Made by a program: the position numbers and the translations under genes
IMG/VR virus record: IMGVR_UViG_3300016486_001578
Reading direction: 5' to 3' (one strand)
Origin: a virus
Lineage: Duplodnaviria > Caudoviricetes
DNA length: 64,000 nucleotides
Notes under the pieces: generated by a model
Database searches by the model: none
The model's input: only the letters and a program-made list of their open reading frames with translations
What the model was told of the DNA's origin: nothing
In this document: one piece after another, positions 11,013 through 51,228 of the stretch
Numbering within the stretch: the first letter of the stretch is position 1
Layout: each line of letters opens with the position of its first letter

Positions 11013-11432
11013 ATGAAACATTTAAAACACAGAAAAATATTCGAATCTAATATAGATGATATAAATTATATTTTTATGGAAATAAGAGATGATGGTTATA
11101 ATGTTGATATAAATAAAACAAGAAAAGACAACACTCAGCGAATAACAATAAACAGAACTTATAAAAATTATGGACGTGATAGTGATGGAATATTTAACTT
11201 TGAGAAACCTTTCATGATATCAGAAATAATAGATGTAGTTGAAAGGATAATAAGGATCAATAACCAAGTAAGTTTATATGATATAAAACTATATAATAAA
11301 TATGCGAATAATAAATTCAACAGATTATCAAAAGATAAAAAAATGACATGGAAAAATTTTTTATCAATAATTAATAGAGAGTTTGATTTAAAAACACAAA
11401 TAAAAGAAATTGTTTTGTTGGTTGAATTATAA
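11013..11432 (+). CDS. Hypothetical protein with capsid-targeting-like N-terminus
   Basis: MKHLKHRKIFES. Confidence 0.6.
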   Translation: MKHLKHRKIFESNIDDINYIFMEIRDDGYNVDINKTRKDNTQRITINRTYKNYGRDSDGIFNFEKPFMISEIIDVVERIIRINNQVSLYDIKLYNKYANNKFNRLSKDKKMTWKNFLSIINREFDLKTQIKEIVLLVEL

Positions 11433-11515
11433 AATTTATTTCCTTTTTTGATTCTATATTAAAAATTATACTAAGAATTATAAAATTAATATATAAACAA
11501 AACCTAAAATATTAG

Positions 11516-14500
11516 ATGTCTAATCACAAAAGCCTTGCATTCTTCAATAAAGAAGGAGATTACTTAAATTTTAATTATAATGATTCATCTGATAGATTTG
11601 AGGGAGATATATTATTTCATGAAAACTCAAATGATACTTATAAAACATATGGTATTTATATGTTGGAAAAAGTACCATCTTTTGAATTCGAATTCCCAGG
11701 TGTATTGACTACTAAAAAGTTTCAATTATTTAATGAGTATGGTATAAATTTTTATGGCGCTAAATATTCTAACCAAAAAATAGATTATATAGAACCCACA
11801 AATAATTATGGTACCTTCTATTCTAAGTGGATATATGGAGTAGAATTTGATACTAAGTTTCCAATAGGAACATTAATAACATTTGATTCTCTATTTTTGG
11901 AGTTTTCTAATTTAGACAAACCTTATGTTGTTGTTTCATCCAAAAAAGGAGCAATAATGGTTATTGGTCAAATAGATAATGACACTTTTGAAAGTACATT
12001 TAAGCCTATTTATGAAGATTTATCTTCTTATGATAATAAATCAATATCTGGTTTAAATTCTTTAGGTGTTTATGATTATGTTGATACTCAAAATTATGAT
12101 GACAATTTATCTAGTTGGAACGAACCATCTTTTTATAGTAATTATTTTACTGGTAAAAAATTAAATGTAGTTAATTCTGATAAAAATGATGGTATAATAA
12201 CAGTTGAAAATGTTGATATTGTTGATGTTAACCACTTTGAATATATCCTTAGTGATTCTGATTTACCAATAAATAATGATTTAATAATTGAAGTTATAAC
12301 CAAAACTGATTTACCTAAAATATACGAGGGTCAAATAAACATAAGTAATGATTCCGCAATAGAGATAAATTCTTTTGATTATCCTTCAATATTAAAACCA
12401 GGTACTGAGTTTAAAATAGTTGGCTCAACTTTAAATGATATTTTTTTAACGGTTGATTCTATTCCAAATTGGAGTGGTATATCTAATTTAACTTATTTTG
12501 CTACACAATCACAAGTAATATATGATAATAAGATATATGAGTGTATATCATCTTATACTCAAAGTTTTGGATCAATGACATCATCATTTATAACACCAGA
12601 CACAGACACAAATCATTGGTCTTATCCTAGTTTTATAAAAGTATCACAACCAACAAACCTAGAATCTATATTCAATGGTAAGATATACCTAACAACCGAT
12701 AGATATTATTTTACATATGGCTATACACACTCATCAGCAGTTACATTAGCATCTGCCGCAGAAAAATACAAAGAAGATATTGGTATATTTAATATAGATA
12801 TACACTATAATAATGATACAAATATTTTAAATTCAGATTTAATATACCCATCTAAATATGCTGAGGTTAATTATTATTATGATGAGTTAGATTCGGCTAA
12901 TATAATAGGAGAATCGATTAATAAAATAGAGAATCTAATTAGTGTTGAGGAAAATTTAAATTATGAATTAAATTATGATATATCCGAAAACTTTAATTAT
13001 AATATAGTATTTACAGATCTAGATGAATATGGATTTAAGATGAGAATAAATGGTATGATATACGAAGAAGAGATATCATGGGTATATACCGGAATATTAG
13101 TTGATATGGATAGAACCATAGATAGAACACTCAGAAACTGGTTAAGTAGAAATTATATAAGGTTATATACACTCGGTATAATATCAGAACTTAAGTATAT
13201 AGGAAATTATACATCAGTTTATTATAATTCAATAAATATAACTACTCAATATCCAAATGTCCCTATAAATGTAGAAGAAATTTTAGTAGGAACAACCGCT
13301 GATTTTTATATAGAACACTCAAATATTTTATTCACAGAAATAGGCCCATATCTTAATATAAATATAAATGATATAGATTATGGCGTTACTTCTAGTTATT
13401 TATCCGGAACAAACAACACCGACATTTCTAACACATTATCAAAATGGGTTTCACAACACTCGGATAGATTATCTGATTTTGAAATAATTATTAATAATAC
13501 AAATAGTCTATTAAAATTAGATTTTAAAGACCTAGACAGAAGATTAGATTATATAATAACAACAAACTTGTTAAATAAACCAGGATTGGATGGATATTCT
13601 ATTGATAAAAAATTATCCGGAAATAATGGCCTATTAATAGCATCAAATGAGGTTTTATTACCTGGTCTTGGTAGCTCACCCACAAATATAAATACCGGAT
13701 CAACCATATCAACTGATTTTATTGATCAAGGATTTTCGACTGGTATGGTATTCTCTATAAATAATACTATGTGGCCTTGGGTCAATCAAGAGTTTAATAT
13801 ACTAAATATGGATAATGGTTCCTTAGGATTGAGTTATCAGGGTCCTTTTTGGGGATTAATGGATGGAATATGTAATTCATCAGCTTTCACTACAATAGCT
13901 TTTAGTAATGGATTTAGTGCTACTGGGTGTAGTTCACCTATTAGTCCAACTGGCTCCGGTGGACCATTTAATGATTATGAATTTAATACGGCCTTTAGTA
14001 TATCCTATAACCCAAACGAATACATATTAAATGACTATGATATAAGTACATTTGATGGTACTGATAATTTGGTTGATATAAAATATATTCAATTATCAGA
14101 TAGCTTATATGCCTTAGGTGATGGTTTAGTGGTTGTTGATGCATTCACTACTGATGTAATAGAAACTGTTGATTTACCTGGCCTTAGCCAAAGTATTAAA
14201 ATGGAATTTAATGAATTTAATAATTACTTATATTGTTTAACAAATACAAATATTTATGTGGTTGATCCATTAACAAACAATTTGATTGTAACAATACCTG
14301 TCTCTGGTGGTACAGGTTTCGATTTGTGTATAAACCAATTTAATGGTGATGTTTATTTTACATCAGCCGGTGATACTATTAATATAATAGCATATAATTT
14401 TTTAATACCATCTGCGTCATACACTGATGTAATAGATTCTTCTTCTGTAAATTGGCCATCATCTAATCCAAGTTTTTACAAAATGGTATTTGATCCAATA

Positions 14501-43510: not shown

Positions 43511-44023
43511 ATGAGTATGAGAATTAGAAAGTTTAATGAAAATAATGATATGAATAGATCATTAAAAGATTATATAAGAGGTAAAATAGAATATACTAAG
43601 ATAATTAATCTTATGTATAAAAATATGGATATCTTTGATATATTAGGAGATTATATCTATAATGATATATTTTGTGGTAAGATACCAAAGAGTCTAGACT
43701 ACATAACCAAAAAGGATAAATTAGCAATTTTACTTATAAGTGAATCAGATTTAATTGTAGATAGATTAAAGGAGCTTTATGGTGAGCCAATCTATCATAA
43801 TGAATTTGGTGAAGGATTTGAGGGTAATTATAATCAAGAAACTGATGAGTATATCGAACCCGAAAATAAGAGTGGATTCGCATCATATTTTATAAATATT
43901 GAAGGTGTTGAATTACATGTTGGTTATGATCATAGGGGACTTTCCTTAGAGGTAGAAAAAAATATTGAAATAGAAAAAATATACAAGTCTCTGAAAATAT
44001 ATTTACTATATTTGTATTTATGA
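43511..44023 (+). CDS. Hypothetical protein with capsid-targeting-like N-terminus
   Basis: MRIRKFNEN. Confidence 0.55.
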   Translation: MSMRIRKFNENNDMNRSLKDYIRGKIEYTKIINLMYKNMDIFDILGDYIYNDIFCGKIPKSLDYITKKDKLAILLISESDLIVDRLKELYGEPIYHNEFGEGFEGNYNQETDEYIEPENKSGFASYFINIEGVELHVGYDHRGLSLEVEKNIEIEKIYKSLKIYLLYLYL

Positions 44024-44766
44024 AAATATATATACTCGCAGATAAAAATAATATACCATATACCGTAAATGCTTATTTAGCATATAATGGCTTTGAACAA
44101 TTGGGATATGAAGTTATCTTAATAAAGACAATCGATGATATTAAAGATAATAATCCAGAAAATATTGTATTTGCTGGTATAGGTAATGTTAAAAACTATA
44201 TTAATAATGTTTTAAAATTAGATATTGATATTGAGAATTTTGACTACCCAAGTGAACTAAGTGAATATTTAGGTCGTAATTTACATAAAGATAAGTTTAA
44301 TAAGTTTATTAGTGAATTTACTGGTGATAAACCTTTATTTATAAAACCAGTAAATGAACAAAAGCTATTCACAGGAGTTTTAATCAATGAGTATAAAGAC
44401 ATACCACCATTAAAAGAAGATATTGATATATGGGTATCAGAGCCTATTAAATTTATAACAGAATATAGATGCTTTATCTATCATAATAAAATAATAGGAT
44501 GTAAGAATTATAAAGGAAATCCCTTTAGAAGTATTGATGAAAATGTAGTCTTAGGAGCAGTTAAAGATTTTACCAAATCACCTATTTCATATTCAATCGA
44601 CTTTGGTCTAACTGATGATGGTAGAACTCTATTAGTAGAAGCTAATGACTCACATTCCTTAGGTGCTTATGGCTTGAACCCACACCTATATGCTAGAATA
44701 ATAGCAGCAAGATGGGCAGAGTTAACAAATACAAATGACTACTCCTATTATGAATTTAATATATAA
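44020..44766 (+). CDS. ATP-grasp protein (R2K/DUF4343-like)
   Basis: DYPSEL..YLGR, FIKPV..KLFTG, EYRCFI, IDFG...LVEAND. Confidence 0.8.
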   Translation: MKIYILADKNNIPYTVNAYLAYNGFEQLGYEVILIKTIDDIKDNNPENIVFAGIGNVKNYINNVLKLDIDIENFDYPSELSEYLGRNLHKDKFNKFISEFTGDKPLFIKPVNEQKLFTGVLINEYKDIPPLKEDIDIWVSEPIKFITEYRCFIYHNKIIGCKNYKGNPFRSIDENVVLGAVKDFTKSPISYSIDFGLTDDGRTLLVEANDSHSLGAYGLNPHLYARIIAARWAELTNTNDYSYYEFNI

Positions 44767-45596: not shown

Positions 45597-45753
45597 ATGA
45601 ACACAACAACTTTAAATACAAACTTATCACTGAGATCTCTTTTATTAAGAGAAGGGTCGGGATTTGTCTTATTTGAACGTTGTGATAGTAAATAATTACT
45701 ATAATAATATATCTAATACAAACCCGATACTCATAAAAGTATCGGGTTTTTTT
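45597..45753 (+). promoter_or_regulatory. Leader-peptide attenuator of the tRNA cluster (leader ORF 45597-45695)
   Basis: Leader MNTTTLNTNLSLRSLLLREGSGFVLFERCDSK. Antiterminator TCGGGATTTGT (45657-67) pairs with ACAAACCCGA (45718-27). Terminator AAACCCGATACT/AGTATCGGGTTT plus T tract ends 2 nt before the first tRNA. Confidence 0.75.
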
Positions 45754-45755
45754 AT

Positions 45756-45839
45756 GCACTTGTGGTGGAATTGGTAGACACCCTGGTCTTAGAAGCCAGT
45801 GCTCGGAAGAGCGTGAGAGTTCGATTCTCTCCAAGTGTA
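45756..45839 (+). tRNA. tRNA-Leu(TAG), long variable arm
   Basis: CTGGT-CTTAGAA-GCCAG; canonical D and T loops. Confidence 0.95.
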
Positions 45840-45846
45840 CTATAAT

Positions 45847-45933
45847 GCGGCTATGATGAAATTGGTAGCACATGCTAGACTTAAAATCTAGTGGATAGTA
45901 ATGTCCGTGCGGGTTCGACTCCCGCTAGCCGTA
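45847..45933 (+). tRNA. tRNA-Leu(TAA), long variable arm
   Basis: CTAGA-CTTAAAA-TCTAG; GTTCGACTC T-arm. Confidence 0.95.
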
Positions 45934-45940
45934 CAAAAAT

Positions 45941-46026: not shown

Positions 46027-46101
46027 GCTCTGGTAGCCCAATTGGAAGAGGCAATAGTTTTAGAAACTATACAGGTGTGGGTTCAAATCCCACTCGGAGT
46101 A
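46027..46101 (+). tRNA. tRNA with TAG (Leu) anticodon but a short variable loop
   Basis: ATAGT-TTTAGAA-ACTAT; variable region of only about 5-6 nt; discriminator A. Confidence 0.8.
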
Positions 46102-46105
46102 CAAT

Positions 46106-46186
46106 GTCTCAGTAGTCCCAGTTGTCTTCTAAACAACTACGGGTAATTGGATGCTGAAAATATAGGTTCGAATCCTATCTGAGACA
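46106..46186 (+). ncRNA. Non-canonical tRNA-like RNA (TCT anticodon hairpin, no D-arm at the normal position)
   Basis: Perfect acceptor GTCTCAG/CTGAGAC-A and T-arm ATAGG-TTCGAAT-CCTAT. AGTTGT-CTTCTAA-ACAACT lies only 7 nt after the acceptor stem. Confidence 0.65.
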
Positions 46187-46191
46187 CAAAT

Positions 46192-46242
46192 ATCTTGGTG
46201 GTGAAACCGTGTACGCTGCGGGTTCGACTCCCGTCCAAGATA
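46192..46242 (+). ncRNA. Mini tRNA-like RNA (acceptor stem plus T-arm, no anticodon arm)
   Basis: ATCTTGG/CCAAGAT-A; GCGGG-TTCGACT-CCCGT; 51 nt. Confidence 0.6.
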
Positions 46243-46257
46243 CAAAATGAAAGTAAA

Positions 46258-46431
46258 ATGATAATAGAGATAGATAATAAGACATATTTGGTAGAACCTT
46301 GTAAGCATTGTAAAAGAGATGATATCATTTATATAGAGAGTGATTTACCATGGAGTGATAGTAAATTTATATGTGATTTCTGTTGCTCTACCTATTCAAT
46401 ATTTGATACTAATATAGCAAATAAGATATAA
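46258..46431 (+). CDS. Small Zn-ribbon-like protein inside the tRNA cluster
   Basis: MIIEIDNK...CKHC...CDFCC. Confidence 0.5.
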   Translation: MIIEIDNKTYLVEPCKHCKRDDIIYIESDLPWSDSKFICDFCCSTYSIFDTNIANKI

Positions 46432-46542: not shown

Positions 46543-46647
46543 ATGAAAACTAAAAATACATTACTACTACTACTCAAAGAATGATTCTTCTTTAGTATAG
46601 TAATACCTTATACTCAAGTCTTATCATTAATTTGATAAGACTTTTTT
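46543..46647 (+). promoter_or_regulatory. Leucine leader-peptide attenuator of leuS (leader ORF 46543-46584)
   Basis: ATG AAA ACT AAA AAT ACA TTA CTA CTA CTA CTC AAA GAA TGA = MKTKNTLLLLLKE. Terminator AAGTCTTATCA-TTAATT-TGATAAGACTT-TTTT (46616-47) ends 26 nt before the leuS ATG. Confidence 0.85.
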
Positions 46648-46673: not shown

Positions 46674-48299
46674 ATGAATATAAAAGAAATAGAAAAAAAG
46701 TGGCAAAATAAATGGATAGAAGATAATTCATTTAAATTTGATGTAAACTCTAATAAAGAGAAGAAGATTATCATACCTATGTTTCCTTACCCCTCTGGTA
46801 ATATACATATGGGTCATATGAGAAATTATACAATATCGGATGTGATTGCTAGATATTGGCGAAATAAAGGATTTAACGTTTGTCATCCAATGGGTTGGGA
46901 CTCATATGGTTCACCAGCAGAAAGTGCTGCTATAAATAATAATGTACATCCAAAAGAATGGACTGATATCAATATTAAGAATATGAAAGAGCAAATGATT
47001 AGAATGGGTATGTCATTTGATTGGAGTAGAGAAATATCAACATGCGAGGTAGACTATTGGAAAAATGAACAGAAGTTCTTTATTGATATGTGGAAAAAAG
47101 GATATATTGATAAGAAGATTGGTTATGTAAACTGGGATCCAATAGATGAGAGTGTGGTTTCAAATGAACAAGTTATAGATGGTAAAGGGTGGAGAACAGG
47201 TGCTATAATAGAACAAAAAGAAATGATACAATATTACTTTAAAACAACTATGTTTAAAGATGATATGATGAATGTATCCTCTTGTGAAGAATGGCCTGAT
47301 AATATTACTAAGCAACAAGTAAACTTCATGAGTAAGGGTATAAGAAATGGTGATGATATAAACCCATTCTCAGATTGGTGTGTATCAAGACAGAAATATT
47401 GGGGAACACCAATACCTATGATCAATTGTGACAAATGTGGAACTATTCCAAATGAGAATATCCCAGTAGTAGCACCAATTGATGTTGACTTTAATGGAAA
47501 GGGTAATCCTATAAGAAATCATGCAACATGGGCGAATATAAAATGCCCAAATTGTGGTGGTGATGCTGAGAAAGAAACAGATACAATGGATACATTTGTT
47601 CAATCATCTTGGTACTTTATAAGATATATCTCAGATTTTTTTAATGGTGAGTTCGATCATGATGTTATTAAAAAAATGTTCCCAATTGATTACTATATTG
47701 GTGGCTCAGAACATGCTAATAGTCATATGATTTATTCTAGATTTTTTTGGAGAGTTTTTAAAGAAATGAATTATATACCTAAAAATACCTCAATAGAACC
47801 ATTTAAAAAAGTAATAACACAAGGTATGGTGAAAAATGGTGGGAAAAAGATGAGTAAATCAGCAGGTAATGGTATATCACCAATTGATGTAGTTGATAAA
47901 TATGGTTGTGATGTTGTAAGAATGTATATGATGTTCAGTGGACCAGTTGAACAAGATATTGATTGGAATGAAGATGGTATAAAAGGTGTGTCTAGATTTA
48001 TAACTAAAATTATAAATGCTATAACTAAAATAAAAGATAAAGATTTCATATATATTAAAAATGTAAAAAATGAACAAATATCTAAAACTAAAATAGAAGA
48101 ATTGAATAAAAGAATTGAAAATGTATATGAAGATAATATGAAATTTAATACAATAATAGCATTTTCAATGGAAACATATAATGCAATATCAAAAACAACT
48201 GATATAAATATATGGAAAGAGGGAATAGATACCATAATGCGTGGTATAGGTCCAATAATTCCACATATTTATAGTGAAAATTATGAAAATTATGAATAG
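46674..48299 (+). CDS. leuS: Minimal leucyl-tRNA synthetase (no CP1 editing domain, no C-terminal domain)
   Basis: MFPYPSGNIHMGH, GWDSYG.PAE, DWCVSRQKYWGTPIP, ETDTMDTFVQSSWY, YIGGSEHA, KMSKS; 541 aa. Confidence 0.92.
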   Translation: MNIKEIEKKWQNKWIEDNSFKFDVNSNKEKKIIIPMFPYPSGNIHMGHMRNYTISDVIARYWRNKGFNVCHPMGWDSYGSPAESAAINNNVHPKEWTDINIKNMKEQMIRMGMSFDWSREISTCEVDYWKNEQKFFIDMWKKGYIDKKIGYVNWDPIDESVVSNEQVIDGKGWRTGAIIEQKEMIQYYFKTTMFKDDMMNVSSCEEWPDNITKQQVNFMSKGIRNGDDINPFSDWCVSRQKYWGTPIPMINCDKCGTIPNENIPVVAPIDVDFNGKGNPIRNHATWANIKCPNCGGDAEKETDTMDTFVQSSWYFIRYISDFFNGEFDHDVIKKMFPIDYYIGGSEHANSHMIYSRFFWRVFKEMNYIPKNTSIEPFKKVITQGMVKNGGKKMSKSAGNGISPIDVVDKYGCDVVRMYMMFSGPVEQDIDWNEDGIKGVSRFITKIINAITKIKDKDFIYIKNVKNEQISKTKIEELNKRIENVYEDNMKFNTIIAFSMETYNAISKTTDINIWKEGIDTIMRGIGPIIPHIYSENYENYE

Positions 48300-48309
48300 A
48301 AAACTAAAA

Positions 48310-49359
48310 ATGAATAAAGTAGATAAAAAATATTTAAAACTTCTTAAAAAAATTTTAAAAAAAGGAATAGTTAAAAAAGATAGAACCAGAACTGGGACAA
48401 TATCCTTATTTGGTCATTCGATGCGTTTTAACATGAGTGATGGCTTTCCACTATTAACGTCTAAAAAAATGTTTACAAAAGCAATAATAATTGAATTAAT
48501 ATGGTTTATAAATGGAGATACTAATATTAAATATTTAGTTGACAATGGATGTAATATCTGGAATGGAGACGCTTATAAAAATTATTGTAATAAGTATTGG
48601 ACATTAGATGAATTATGTAAAATTGAATATGGTAGCTCATATTATGATCATGAGTTAAATGAATATAATTTTGAAGTTTGGACAATTGAAAAATTTATTG
48701 AGAAAATAAAAACAGATGATGTCTTCTGTAAAAAATGGGGTGAGTTGGGACCAGTATATGGGAGACAATGGCGTGATTTTAATGGCGTTGATCAATTTAA
48801 AGATTTGTTAGAAACTCTTAAAAAAAATCCGGACTCTAGAAGAATGATGGTTAGTGCATGGGATCCATCAAAACTTAATGAAATGGTTCTACCACCTTGC
48901 CACTTTAACTTCCAATGTTATACAACAGAAATGACTTACAATGAAAGAATTAAAAGGTGGTTAAAATCTATCAATAAAGATGAATCATATTCAAAAGAAA
49001 TGACAATGGAAAAATTAGATTTACAAGGATTTCCAAAAAGAAAATTGGATATAAAATGGAGTCAACGCAGTTGCGATTTTTTCCTAGGAATTCCGTTCAA
49101 TATAGCATCCTATGGTCTCCTACTACATTTATTAGCAAAAGAAGTTAATATGATTCCTAATGATTTAATATTTTCCGGTGGAGATTGTCACATCTACCTA
49201 AATCATATAGATGTTGTTAAAGAACAATTAAAAAGTGAAACATTTAAATTATGTAATTTGGAGTTATTGAATAACTCAATATTTAATTTAAAATATGAGG
49301 ATTTTAAGATTCTAAATTATAAATCTTCCCCTGTATTAAAAGGAAAATTATCAAATTAA
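48310..49359 (+). CDS. thyA: Thymidylate synthase
   Basis: DRT.TGT, LGPVYG, DSRRM, LPPCH, QRSCDFFLGIPFNIASY, GDCHIYLNH. Confidence 0.95.
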   Translation: MNKVDKKYLKLLKKILKKGIVKKDRTRTGTISLFGHSMRFNMSDGFPLLTSKKMFTKAIIIELIWFINGDTNIKYLVDNGCNIWNGDAYKNYCNKYWTLDELCKIEYGSSYYDHELNEYNFEVWTIEKFIEKIKTDDVFCKKWGELGPVYGRQWRDFNGVDQFKDLLETLKKNPDSRRMMVSAWDPSKLNEMVLPPCHFNFQCYTTEMTYNERIKRWLKSINKDESYSKEMTMEKLDLQGFPKRKLDIKWSQRSCDFFLGIPFNIASYGLLLHLLAKEVNMIPNDLIFSGGDCHIYLNHIDVVKEQLKSETFKLCNLELLNNSIFNLKYEDFKILNYKSSPVLKGKLSN

Positions 49360-50160
49360 AATATAATTAATAAACCTAGGATTATCTGACAAACATCTCC
49401 ATCTAATTGTCACCACAGGTAATCCTATATCTTTTGATGCATCATGATAGGATTCATAAATTATTCCATCAACTGATAATTTAATTCTATTTATGGGCTT
49501 TTTACCAATTCTTTTTTGTCTAATTTTATCCTTGCTTTCCTCACTATGTTTTTTCCCATAAAAGTGATTTTTATCACCTATTCTTTCAGATGCACTTTTT
49601 GATAATTTATCACTTATAATATTTGCTCTTTCTAAACCATATAATTCAATATTAGTCTTTCCCTTATTAATTGGCTCTATTCCAATTCTTCTCAAAGATG
49701 CAATTTCTCTCATCTCATCATTCCACCTTTTACCATAATTTGGATTTGACTCACCAGATTTACCCCATTTTTCTACCCTTTCTTCCTTTGACATATTAGA
49801 TATTTTATTATTTAAAGTCTCTGTAATTCGTTTAATTATATCTTCTCTATTTGGATTATTAGTCAAATTATCACCACCTGATGCGTTTTTACCTATATTG
49901 AAACCATTATTATTAAATGGTTGAAACTCATCAATAAAATATTAATCTCTTATAAGTAGTTGATCTATTTCACATAATTCTAAAATTTCAAACTTAAAAT
50001 TGTTTATACCATATTTATCAAATGCTCTTTGTAAATGTATATTTATGTGTTTATTCCCATTTAGGTCATTTATATGCCTCCTCCATCTTTTTCTAATATT
50101 ATTTGATGAGCCTATGTAAAGTTTATCATTACAAGTTATTTTATATATTCCTATTTCCAT
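49351..50160 (-). CDS. GIY-YIG/NUMOD3 homing endonuclease (frameshift near 49940)
   Basis: GIYKIT..YIGSS..R..H; FYGKKHSEE. The two ORF-track pieces together align with 50407-51228. Confidence 0.85.
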
Positions 50161-50184
50161 AACTTATATATTAATAGTTGGGTC

Positions 50185-50415
50185 TTATTAGCAAGGGAAG
50201 CTAACATGATACCAGATGAATTAATAGGAAATTTAGGAGATTGTCATATATATTTAAATCAAATAGATCCTATTCAAGAACAACTTAATAATAAATCATA
50301 TAAATTACCAGAATTAAAATTATCAAATAATTCAATCTTTGATATAAAAATAGAAGAAATTTCTATTATAGGTTATAAATCATCTAAAAGAGTTAATTAT
50401 AAATTATCAAATTAA
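50185..50415 (+). pseudogene. thyA: Orphan thyA C-terminal fragment
   Basis: LLAREANMIPDELIGNLGDCHIYLNQ...YKS...KLSN parallels the end of 48310-49359. Confidence 0.85.
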
Positions 50416-51228
50416 AATATAATTATCAAATTTTTTATTTTTTGATAAACATCGCCACCTAATTGTAACAACTGGTATTTCTTTATCTTTTGAAGCATCA
50501 CCATAGGAATCATATATTTTTCCATCTATTGAGAGTTTAACTCTATTTGACGGCTTTATACCCATTCTTTTTTTACTAATTTTATTTTTAGTTTCATCAC
50601 TATGTTTTTTACCATAGAATCCATTTTTTTCACCTATTCTTTGTGAAGCTAAAAAAGATAGCTTCTCACTTATTCTTTTTGATATTTCTTCGCCATATAA
50701 TTCAGTGTTTGTTTTTCCAAACCTATTTCTTAGTCCATTTTTCAAATTAGATTTTTGATAATTTGAAAAATCTAATTTCATTTTATCAGACCATCTATTG
50801 CCATAATTTGGATTTAATTTACCTATTTTGCCCCATTTTTCTTTTTTTCCTTTTGTTGTCATATTTGATATGTTATAATTAACAGACTCTTTAATTCTAT
50901 TTATTATATCTATTCTTTTTGGATTATTTGTTAGGTTATCTCCACCAGAAGCACCAGTGCTTATATTTAATACATTTTCATTAAATGGTAAAATACTTTT
51001 CAAATATTTTTGCTCTGTTATTAATAATTCTTTTACTTTACATAATTCTATAACCTCAAATTTAAAATTATCTAATCCATATTTATTAAAAACTCTTTGT
51101 AATTTTATATTTATGTGTTTATTTTTATTTAAATCATCTATATGTCTTTTCCACCTTTTTTCTATATTTTTTGATGATCCTATGTAGAATTTTTCACCAC
51201 AACTAATTTTATATATTCCTGAACTCAT
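50407..51228 (-). CDS. GIY-YIG/NUMOD3 homing endonuclease
   Basis: GIYKIS..FYIGSS..RWKRH; FYGKKHSDETK. Confidence 0.9.
   Translation of the reverse strand: MSSGIYKISCGEKFYIGSSKNIEKRWKRHIDDLNKNKHINIKLQRVFNKYGLDNFKFEVIELCKVKELLITEQKYLKSILPFNENVLNISTGASGGDNLTNNPKRIDIINRIKESVNYNISNMTTKGKKEKWGKIGKLNPNYGNRWSDKMKLDFSNYQKSNLKNGLRNRFGKTNTELYGEEISKRISEKLSFLASQRIGEKNGFYGKKHSDETKNKISKKRMGIKPSNRVKLSIDGKIYDSYGDASKDKEIPVVTIRWRCLSKNKKFDNYILI

Follow-up and report, generated by a model that had tools for sequence, protein, structure and literature searches.

A leucyl-tRNA synthetase without editing, leucine-specific and C-terminal domains in a huge phage, placed behind a putative leucine-codon attenuator

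Introduction

Can a leucyl-tRNA synthetase (LeuRS) that has shed every accessory tRNA-handling domain still supply a phage with leucyl-tRNA? This question is raised by an open reading frame (ORF) at positions 46674-48299 of a 64,000-nucleotide stretch of Caudoviricetes DNA (IMG/VR record IMGVR_UViG_3300016486_001578; this whole stretch is called the window below), which encodes a LeuRS of only 541 amino acids. Aminoacyl-tRNA synthetase (aaRS) and tRNA genes are known in phage genomes over 200 kb (Al-Shayeb et al. 2020, PMC7162821); in the passages of that paper searched, no mention of the domain losses, tRNA-Leu linkage or attenuator described here was found. In the literature searched, we found no description of the LeuRS architecture and regulation of this phage family, nor of a phage mini-LeuRS or a phage aaRS attenuator.

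The ORF encodes a bacterial-type LeuRS that lacks the CP1 domain, the leucine-specific domain (LSD) and the C-terminal domain. At a probability of roughly 0.65, we read it as the real, selected, minimal LeuRS of a huge phage, presumably active, free of editing and induced when Leu-tRNA(Leu) runs short.

Architecture and predicted structure of the phage LeuRS

The gene and its landmarks are the following.

46674-48299, plus strand: minimal leucyl-tRNA synthetase, 541 amino acids (profile, alignment, AlphaFold model)
46806-46817, plus strand: HIGH motif, here HMGH, residues 45-48 (translation)
47331-47372, plus strand: 14-residue linker SKGIRNGDDINPFS, residues 220-233, replacing the ~200-residue CP1 (alignment, model)
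47832-47861, plus strand: KNGGK standing in for the LSD, followed by KMSKS, residues 392-396 (alignment)
48252-48299, plus strand: final helix of the anticodon-binding domain (PIIPH), with the TAG stop behind it (alignment, model)

The protein scored 588.6 bits against the NCBIfam model TIGR00396 (leuS_bact), in three separate stretches, where the curated equivalog cut-off is 548.4, and its best sequence matches among solved structures were bacterial LeuRS. Pfam returned only the class I catalytic families, together with a sub-threshold piece of the anticodon-binding domain, and no match to the CP1 editing domain (PF13603) was obtained in the protein. Alignment with the Neisseria gonorrhoeae LeuRS (877 amino acids) paired query residues 6-222 with 11-228, 232-406 with 430-606 and 382-533 with 625-788, leaving gonococcal residues 229-429, which form CP1, with no counterpart; a linker of exactly 14 residues separates ...QQVNFM from DWCVSRQ. 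At the LSD site the order is TQGMV-KNGGK-KMSKS, where LSD-bearing enzymes have ~45 residues (the family consensus is K-K-D-G-K, against KNGG(K) in the window). The C-terminal end, PIIPHIYSENYENYE, lies ~10 residues past PIIPH, at about Escherichia coli residue 777. What remains is the catalytic Rossmann core, a ZN1-like module, a 4-Cys insertion and the helical anticodon-binding domain.

The synthetic site also carries MFPYPSG, GWDSxG, DWCxSRQ, QSSWY and GGxEHxxxH, the residues of which, like those of HMGH and KMSKS, are invariant or nearly so (at least 90%) in the family. Across 36 relatives the catalytic and leucine-pocket motifs MFPYPSG, HxGH, GxDSxG, QSSWY, GGxEHxxxH, QGxV and KMSKS are invariant; within HMGH, this holds for H45, G47 and H48 and nearly so for M46 (at least 90%).

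An AlphaFold model built from these 36 relatives was confident and compact (mean predicted local distance difference test score, pLDDT, 88.8; predicted template modeling score, pTM, 0.89), with a short beta-hairpin as the CP1-replacing linker and a helical bundle as the C-terminal region. Foldseek gave template modeling scores (TM), normalized by the model, of 0.90-0.91 to the N. gonorrhoeae and E. coli LeuRS, and 0.87 to the Mycoplasma mobile LeuRS with a chain coverage of 76-82%. VIA-align placed model residues 1-541 on residues 5-777 of 860 in E. coli, 5-795 of 877 in N. gonorrhoeae, 4-795 of 878 in Thermus thermophilus and 9-556 of 637 in M. mobile (Z 37-42 and root-mean-square deviation, rmsd, 2.0-3.0 Å for the best chains); the best fit to a solved LeuRS reached Z 42 and rmsd 2.3 Å across 532 residues. 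With its last residue matched to E. coli residue 777, the model shows that the tether and C-terminal domain (~80 residues) are missing, and the helical domain itself is present.

CP1 is the editing domain of LeuRS and the binding site of the benzoxaborole drugs. Its absence should remove both post-transfer editing and the site for these drugs, and we would therefore expect an enzyme that is error-prone and benzoxaborole-insensitive.

An earlier note on this DNA, written from its letters, had described a 541-residue LeuRS with about 14 residues for CP1 and with intact HMGH and KMSKS, which the TIGR00396 score and the alignments bear out. It had also placed the stop right after PxxPH, ahead of the C-terminal domain, as the end of the model at residue 777 of 860 confirms, and the structural comparison with E. 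coli LeuRS that it proposed found both CP1 and the C-terminal domain absent. It was right on these two losses and overlooked that of the LSD; it also presented a single gene, missing the putative leucine-codon attenuator upstream and the whole phage family.

The note's comparison with the M. mobile LeuRS (PDB 3ziu; PMC3643597) was apt. This enzyme is likewise bacterial-type, with a short linker for CP1 (the nonapeptide KEEIDGKIT) and the tetrapeptide GKDG for the LSD; its alignment with the phage protein is uninterrupted (query 2-537 to chain 10-552, E 4e-91; Z 37.5), and, without CP1 and LSD, it is active at ~2 per second and mischarges Ile (PMC3643597). Unlike the phage protein, it has ~80 further residues (557-637), comprising the tether and C-terminal tRNA-binding domain, and it serves as the only LeuRS of its cell, whereas the phage LeuRS is an accessory gene. 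To our knowledge, no Leu-leader attenuator has been described for it. The phage family goes beyond M. mobile LeuRS in also dropping the C-terminal domain and in adding a putative leader attenuator and a linkage to tRNA-Leu genes.

A conserved and selected family

An obvious alternative is an artefact of assembly or a pseudogene in decay, with misassembly or a frameshift near the downstream thyA having removed the domains. The local sequence gives some reason for this suspicion: it is A-rich, and the thyA frame, open from 48274, overlaps the last eight LeuRS codons in the +1 frame, confirming that, as the earlier note had pointed out, a 1-nt indel at the junction would fuse the two genes. However, an independent ENA assembly (locus L015; L-numbers denote the loci compared) holds the identical 541-residue gene and the same thyA junction, and relatives with unrelated downstream genes end at the same position, which argues against an indel artefact. 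Recoding of TAG was also considered as the cause of the short C-terminus and rejected: read as sense, the codon adds only 6 residues before a TAA, and such reading hardly alters the coding capacity of the window.

A search of 5.8 billion proteins recovered ~45 metagenomic clusters of 537-547 amino acids (57-78% identity, 99% query coverage), all ending ~10-18 residues past PIxPH, where bacterial relatives run on for ~75-85 residues. Two complete huge-phage genomes contain members with the same end point: LR756501 (735 kb; a genome of Al-Shayeb et al. 2020, PMC7162821), with a 508-residue protein of 64% identity, and LR745206 (635 kb), with a 422-residue protein of 35% identity that also lacks the 4-Cys insertion. 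The stop codons of the family genes differ (TAA at 6 loci, TGA at 2 and TAG at 3), and the pairwise ratio of nonsynonymous to synonymous substitution (dN/dS) is 0.03-0.2, with saturated synonymous sites. Clustering at 50% reduces the family to one representative, scoring 798 bits against 528 for the next match; the other CP1-less LeuRS recovered (635-706 amino acids) keep their C-terminal region, and the phage clade is monophyletic in the tree.

The earlier note had allowed that the missing domains might be an assembly deletion, and this came out negative, both deletions being conserved family-wide. Together with the three different stop codons, the low dN/dS and the confident compact model, these data contradict an assembly or pseudogene origin, which we regard as effectively excluded.

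The 90%-identity cluster of the window LeuRS has a member on a 560,843-bp contig. The window phage itself is huge (~549 kb; a contig of 548,945 bp) and AT-rich (25-31% G+C), and its size, base composition and relatives suggest a Mahaphage- or Lak-like megaphage (PMC7162821).

Domain losses and the search for the missing parts

The nearest bacterial LeuRS (~42-45% identity; named members Campylobacterota and Allofrancisella) are also without an LSD, so that this loss is not phage-specific, and the B. subtilis and M. mobile enzymes likewise lack it (PMC3643597). Within the phage clade, three clusters of 645-647 amino acids retain a shrunken CP1 with the editing motifs TTxxxT and GTGxVMGVPxxDxRD, and their C-terminal domain is absent. 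The tree nests these forms with weak support (0.74-0.87), so it is compatible with one or several CP1 losses.

Some relatives are reduced further. The 422-residue protein (L002 3995-5263, from LR745206) is without the N-terminal helix, CP1, 4-Cys insertion, LSD and C-terminal domain, with HIGH and KMSKS intact. The subclade of L001, L003 and L005 (508-519 amino acids) starts at ...VPMxPYPSG, without a conserved N-terminal helix of ~30 residues; here the LeuRS start directly adjoins a tRNA-Leu array or a GIY-YIG endonuclease gene, and the leader is absent. A tblastn search with N-termini for an upstream exon encoding the missing helix of these forms returned only noise.

The missing parts could also be supplied in trans, as in the split LeuRS of Aquifex or by tRNA-binding cofactors. 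An unrecognized phage protein or a host factor would then give the tRNA binding needed for charging, reconciling the absent C-terminal domain with the signs of function. Many proteins of huge phages are unannotated, and in relatives the gene is flanked by several small ORFs without an assigned function. However, when the whole 735 kb relative was searched with the LeuRS profile at E <= 10, only the mini gene was found (profile positions 15-222, 412-569 and 604-749); positions beyond ~766 were unmatched both in that genome and in the window's relatives. Likewise, tblastn (E <= 1) with CP1 and C-terminal segments taken from four bacterial LeuRS gave only chance-level matches in the 64 kb window and the 735 kb genome. 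A conserved neighbor was also considered as the partner and rejected, the adjacent genes varying from locus to locus with no tRNA-binding Pfam domain among them. We consider a partner in trans quite unlikely.

A leucine-codon leader and terminator ahead of the gene

Two leader ORFs with terminators lie upstream of the LeuRS gene.

46543-46584, plus strand: leader ORF MKTKNTLLLLLKE, 13 codons, with five consecutive Leu codons (TTA CTA CTA CTA CTC) (comparative)
46616-46643, plus strand: intrinsic terminator, 11-bp stem and T-run, 30 nt ahead of the LeuRS start (terminator search, folding)
45597-45749, plus strand: upstream leader ORF, 32 amino acids (core LSLRSLLLR), and a 12-bp terminator at 45720-45749 (ORF and terminator search)

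These are the only two plus-strand terminators in 3.2 kb, one ahead of LeuRS and the other ahead of a tRNA array. Only 6 nt separate the end of the 12-bp terminator from the first tRNA-Leu, and the Leu and Arg codons of the upstream leader match the Leu and Arg tRNA cargo. The leader region of LeuRS folds with z = -4.6 relative to shuffled sequences, the Leu codons forming the 5′ arm of the first hairpin.

Of 15 distinct loci, 10 (window/L015, L002, L004, L011, L012, L013, L014, L064, L065 and L067) have a leader with 3-5 consecutive Leu codons and, after it, a strong terminator ahead of the gene; the 35%-identical 422-residue lineage is among them, and the leader stop lies 26-33 nt from the terminator across these loci. 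As background, LLL occurs in only 3.35% of 3855 short ORFs of the same loci. The remaining leader residues and the terminator sequences vary widely, and the leaders are probably homologous, that is, conserved across saturated divergence rather than invented ten times.

To look for an antiterminator, we folded the nascent transcript with the Leu run masked and the 3′ arm of the terminator not yet made. In most loci, a segment near the leader stop then pairs with the 5′ arm of the terminator. This pairing is clear and covarying in L002, L004, L012, L013, L064 and L065, the partners including GUACUGAG/CUCGGUAC, CGCUGAGAG/CCUCGGCG, AAUGAU..GG/CC..AUCAUU and GUCUGG/CCAGAC; in L002, the 422-residue gene follows a leader with a Leu run and a well-defined antiterminator/terminator. 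Under ribosome-masked minimum-free-energy folding the terminator persisted at every locus; the antiterminator is visible only in the nascent-transcript folds.

Leader-peptide attenuation of aaRS genes is known for pheST in gamma-proteobacteria and has been predicted upstream of leuS in Streptomyces (PMC1262725). By its sequence, the phage element would be a leader-peptide attenuator that responds to tRNA-Leu charging. As charged tRNA-Leu became limiting in infection, ribosomes would stall on the Leu run, the terminator would be bypassed and LeuRS would be made.

tRNA-Leu genes beside LeuRS

Three tRNA-Leu genes precede the LeuRS gene of the window.

45756-45840, plus strand: tRNA-Leu(UAG), 85 nt, long variable arm, A73 (tRNA call)
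45847-45934, plus strand: tRNA-Leu(UAA), 88 nt, long variable arm, A73 (tRNA call)
46027-46102, plus strand: tRNA-Leu(UAG), 76 nt, 6-nt variable loop (type I-like), A73 (Rfam tRNA, 52.9 bits, above threshold)

The array runs tRNA-Leu(UAG), tRNA-Leu(UAA), tRNA-Arg(UCU), the 76-nt tRNA-Leu(UAG), degenerate tRNA-like elements and tRNA-Arg(CCU). The proposed module would comprise, in order, a leader with its terminator, the tRNA-Leu and tRNA-Arg genes, the second leader with its five Leu codons and terminator, and LeuRS. The 76-nt tRNA retains a Leu-type D arm (3-bp stem and an 11-nt AAUUGG-containing loop, CAAUUGGAAGA). The anticodons fit the codon use of the phage, in which TTA and CTA make up 57% and 17% of Leu codons and AGA and AGG 72% and 18% of Arg codons.

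Two degenerate tRNA-like elements occupy 46092-46243. The first, a 94-nt 'tRNA-Arg(tct)' call, has a perfect 7-bp acceptor stem and a T arm without a normal D arm, and scores below the Rfam tRNA threshold; the second (~46184-46243) is an acceptor-stem and T-arm remnant, with a T arm similar to the one in tRNA-Leu(UAA). Also inside the array, at 46258-46431, is a 57-residue ORF with CxxC...CxxC (zinc-ribbon-like) and no Pfam match, which was predicted as a gene in the second assembly too (L015, 249-422).

tRNA-Leu arrays adjoin the mini-LeuRS in five lineages (window, L001, L003, L005 and L014). All 25 tRNA-Leu of these arrays have A73, and 11 of the 25 are short (73-76 nt). In the complete 735 kb genome, which has 59 tRNAs in total, all five tRNA-Leu called by ARAGORN sit just upstream of the mini-LeuRS, and Rfam scored one more unclassified 85-nt tRNA beside this array (L001 2555-2639). 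Adjacency to arrays that include type I-like tRNA-Leu is circumstantial evidence for the altered tRNA specificity supposed in the earlier note.

Type I tRNA-Leu are rare in bacteria, and those of Streptomyces are not charged by E. coli LeuRS (PMC6614811). For the Streptomyces type I tRNA-Leu, a stable elbow is less important than it is for type II, with no specific contribution of the C-terminal domain (PMC6614811). Since they depend less on elbow stability, a link between the loss of the C-terminal domain and the short phage tRNA-Leu is plausible but unproven. Streptomyces coelicolor resembles the phage in having short- and long-variable-arm tRNA-Leu in one compartment (PMC6614811), and Streptomyces leuS resembles the phage gene in its predicted Leu-codon leader attenuator (PMC1262725). 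In contrast, ScoLeuRS is long and complete, and its LSD enables the charging of type I tRNA (PMC6614811), whereas the phage enzyme is without LSD, CP1 and C-terminal domain.

A bolder proposal is that the mini-LeuRS and the type I-like phage tRNA-Leu form a private charging pair with its own Leu-sensing attenuator. The host LeuRS, dependent on its C-terminal domain and on tRNAs with a type II body, would serve these tRNAs poorly, and the phage enzyme, freed of C-terminal domain, LSD and CP1, would serve them well. We put this forward tentatively and think it doubtful.

Does the reduced enzyme charge tRNA?

We infer a working, regulated enzyme, and this covers its aminoacylation activity, its substrate tRNAs, its lack of fidelity and the response of its attenuator. 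The retained Rossmann core, HIGH, KMSKS, leucine pocket and helical anticodon-binding domain would suffice to form Leu-AMP and to hold the acceptor end, and the LeuRS would then charge tRNA-Leu of the phage, perhaps also of the host, without post-transfer editing. That it makes Leu-tRNA(Leu), and does so at scarcity, is suggested by the conserved synthetic site under strong purifying selection, by the Leu-codon-sensing device and by the placement beside a tRNA-Leu set.

Several observations weigh against this reading, which itself rests on sequence, a structure model and gene context. Deletion of the C-terminal domain abolishes aminoacylation by the E. coli and T. thermophilus LeuRS and weakens tRNA binding by that of Mycobacterium tuberculosis (PMC3561953), and no insertion that might compensate for the lost domain is visible in the family alignment of the phage proteins. 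No separate CP1 or C-terminal piece and no recognizable tRNA-binding neighbor was found in the window or the 735 kb relative. The leader is missing from 5 of the 15 loci, and the window's own antiterminator is weak, engaging only ~3 nt of the terminator stem. No tRNA-Leu lies within 6 kb of the gene in L004/L006, L009, L011, L012 and L013, and one 185 kb contig is devoid of tRNA genes. Finally, Sulfolobus LeuRS-I, an archaeal paralogue, binds tRNA and makes Leu-AMP without charging (PMC9437257).

This last case is the model for a further explanation, in which the phage protein activates leucine and no longer charges tRNA, acting instead as a sensor, a regulator or a leucine donor to another acceptor, as has been suggested for LeuRS-I; it may still bind tRNA-Leu. 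Its synthetic site is conserved and all accessory tRNA-handling domains are gone, and the effect of C-terminal deletion in the E. coli and T. thermophilus enzymes points the same way. Like the phage gene, the Sulfolobaceae LeuRS-I (PMC9437257, which cites Weitzel et al. 2020) is an accessory copy whose editing domain is disrupted and whose C-terminus is aberrant. Unlike it, LeuRS-I is archaeal-type and full length, and has no tRNA-array or leader-attenuator link. Moreover, the Leu-codon attenuator and the complete phage tRNA-Leu sets best fit a supplier of Leu-tRNA, the anticodon-binding domain and KMSKS loop are kept under selection, and the loci share no neighboring gene for an acceptor protein or a carrier. 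A non-charging paralogue therefore seems unlikely to us. As for the engineered deletions, they remove the same region, all that follows the anticodon-binding domain, and lose both aminoacylation and editing (PMC3561953), whereas the phage form is natural and under purifying selection, which argues that the enzyme works in some way.

Other features of the window and its relatives

Downstream of LeuRS, after a complete thyA (48310-49359), come two pieces of a GIY-YIG homing endonuclease on the minus strand (49942-50160 and 49351-49866), a second copy of the thyA 3′ end only (50206-50415, Pfam positions 198-264 of 266) and an intact GIY-YIG/NUMOD3/I-TevI-type endonuclease, also on the minus strand (50407-51228). 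The region 48310-51228 looks like the footprint of an endonuclease-driven duplication at the thyA 3′ end. Upstream, ~2 kb from the LeuRS module, lies an R2K-clade ATP-grasp protein (44020-44766; PF18299, E 2e-37), and a protein of the same family is found near the mini-LeuRS in L014 (11049-11924).

In L065 (3341-4009), a 222-residue HisRS-like ORF directly follows the mini-LeuRS, and its match to PF13393 covers just positions 1-120 of 308; it may be another cut-down synthetase. LR756501 carries two adjacent tRNA(CUA) amber-suppressor genes (690585-690738) and three called tRNAs whose anticodons have 2 or 4 bases (204243-229090). In L003, a GOLLD RNA (11098-11561; Rfam RF02032, 163 bits) directly precedes tRNA-Asn in the tRNA region.

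Implications

Work on the E. coli, T. thermophilus and M. tuberculosis enzymes has led the C-terminal domain to be viewed as necessary for charging, and here is a phage family that does without it. A natural, selected family without C-terminal, editing and LSD domains raises the question of what the minimal tRNA-Leu recognition apparatus is, and in the window the gene, the candidate tRNAs (type I-like and type II) and the regulatory leader all lie within 3 kb. If active, this would be the smallest natural LeuRS known to us (541 amino acids, with 508 and 422 in relatives), with neither a post-transfer editing site nor a benzoxaborole-binding site, and a candidate compact orthogonal pair for genetic-code engineering.

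Should the private pair hold, the phage would decode leucine through a channel of its own, shielded from control by the host and from attacks of the host on tRNA or LeuRS, and would possess a natural, very small orthogonal LeuRS/tRNA pair. The conserved Leu-codon attenuator, for its part, suggests that huge phages may regulate their own translation genes through tRNA charging.

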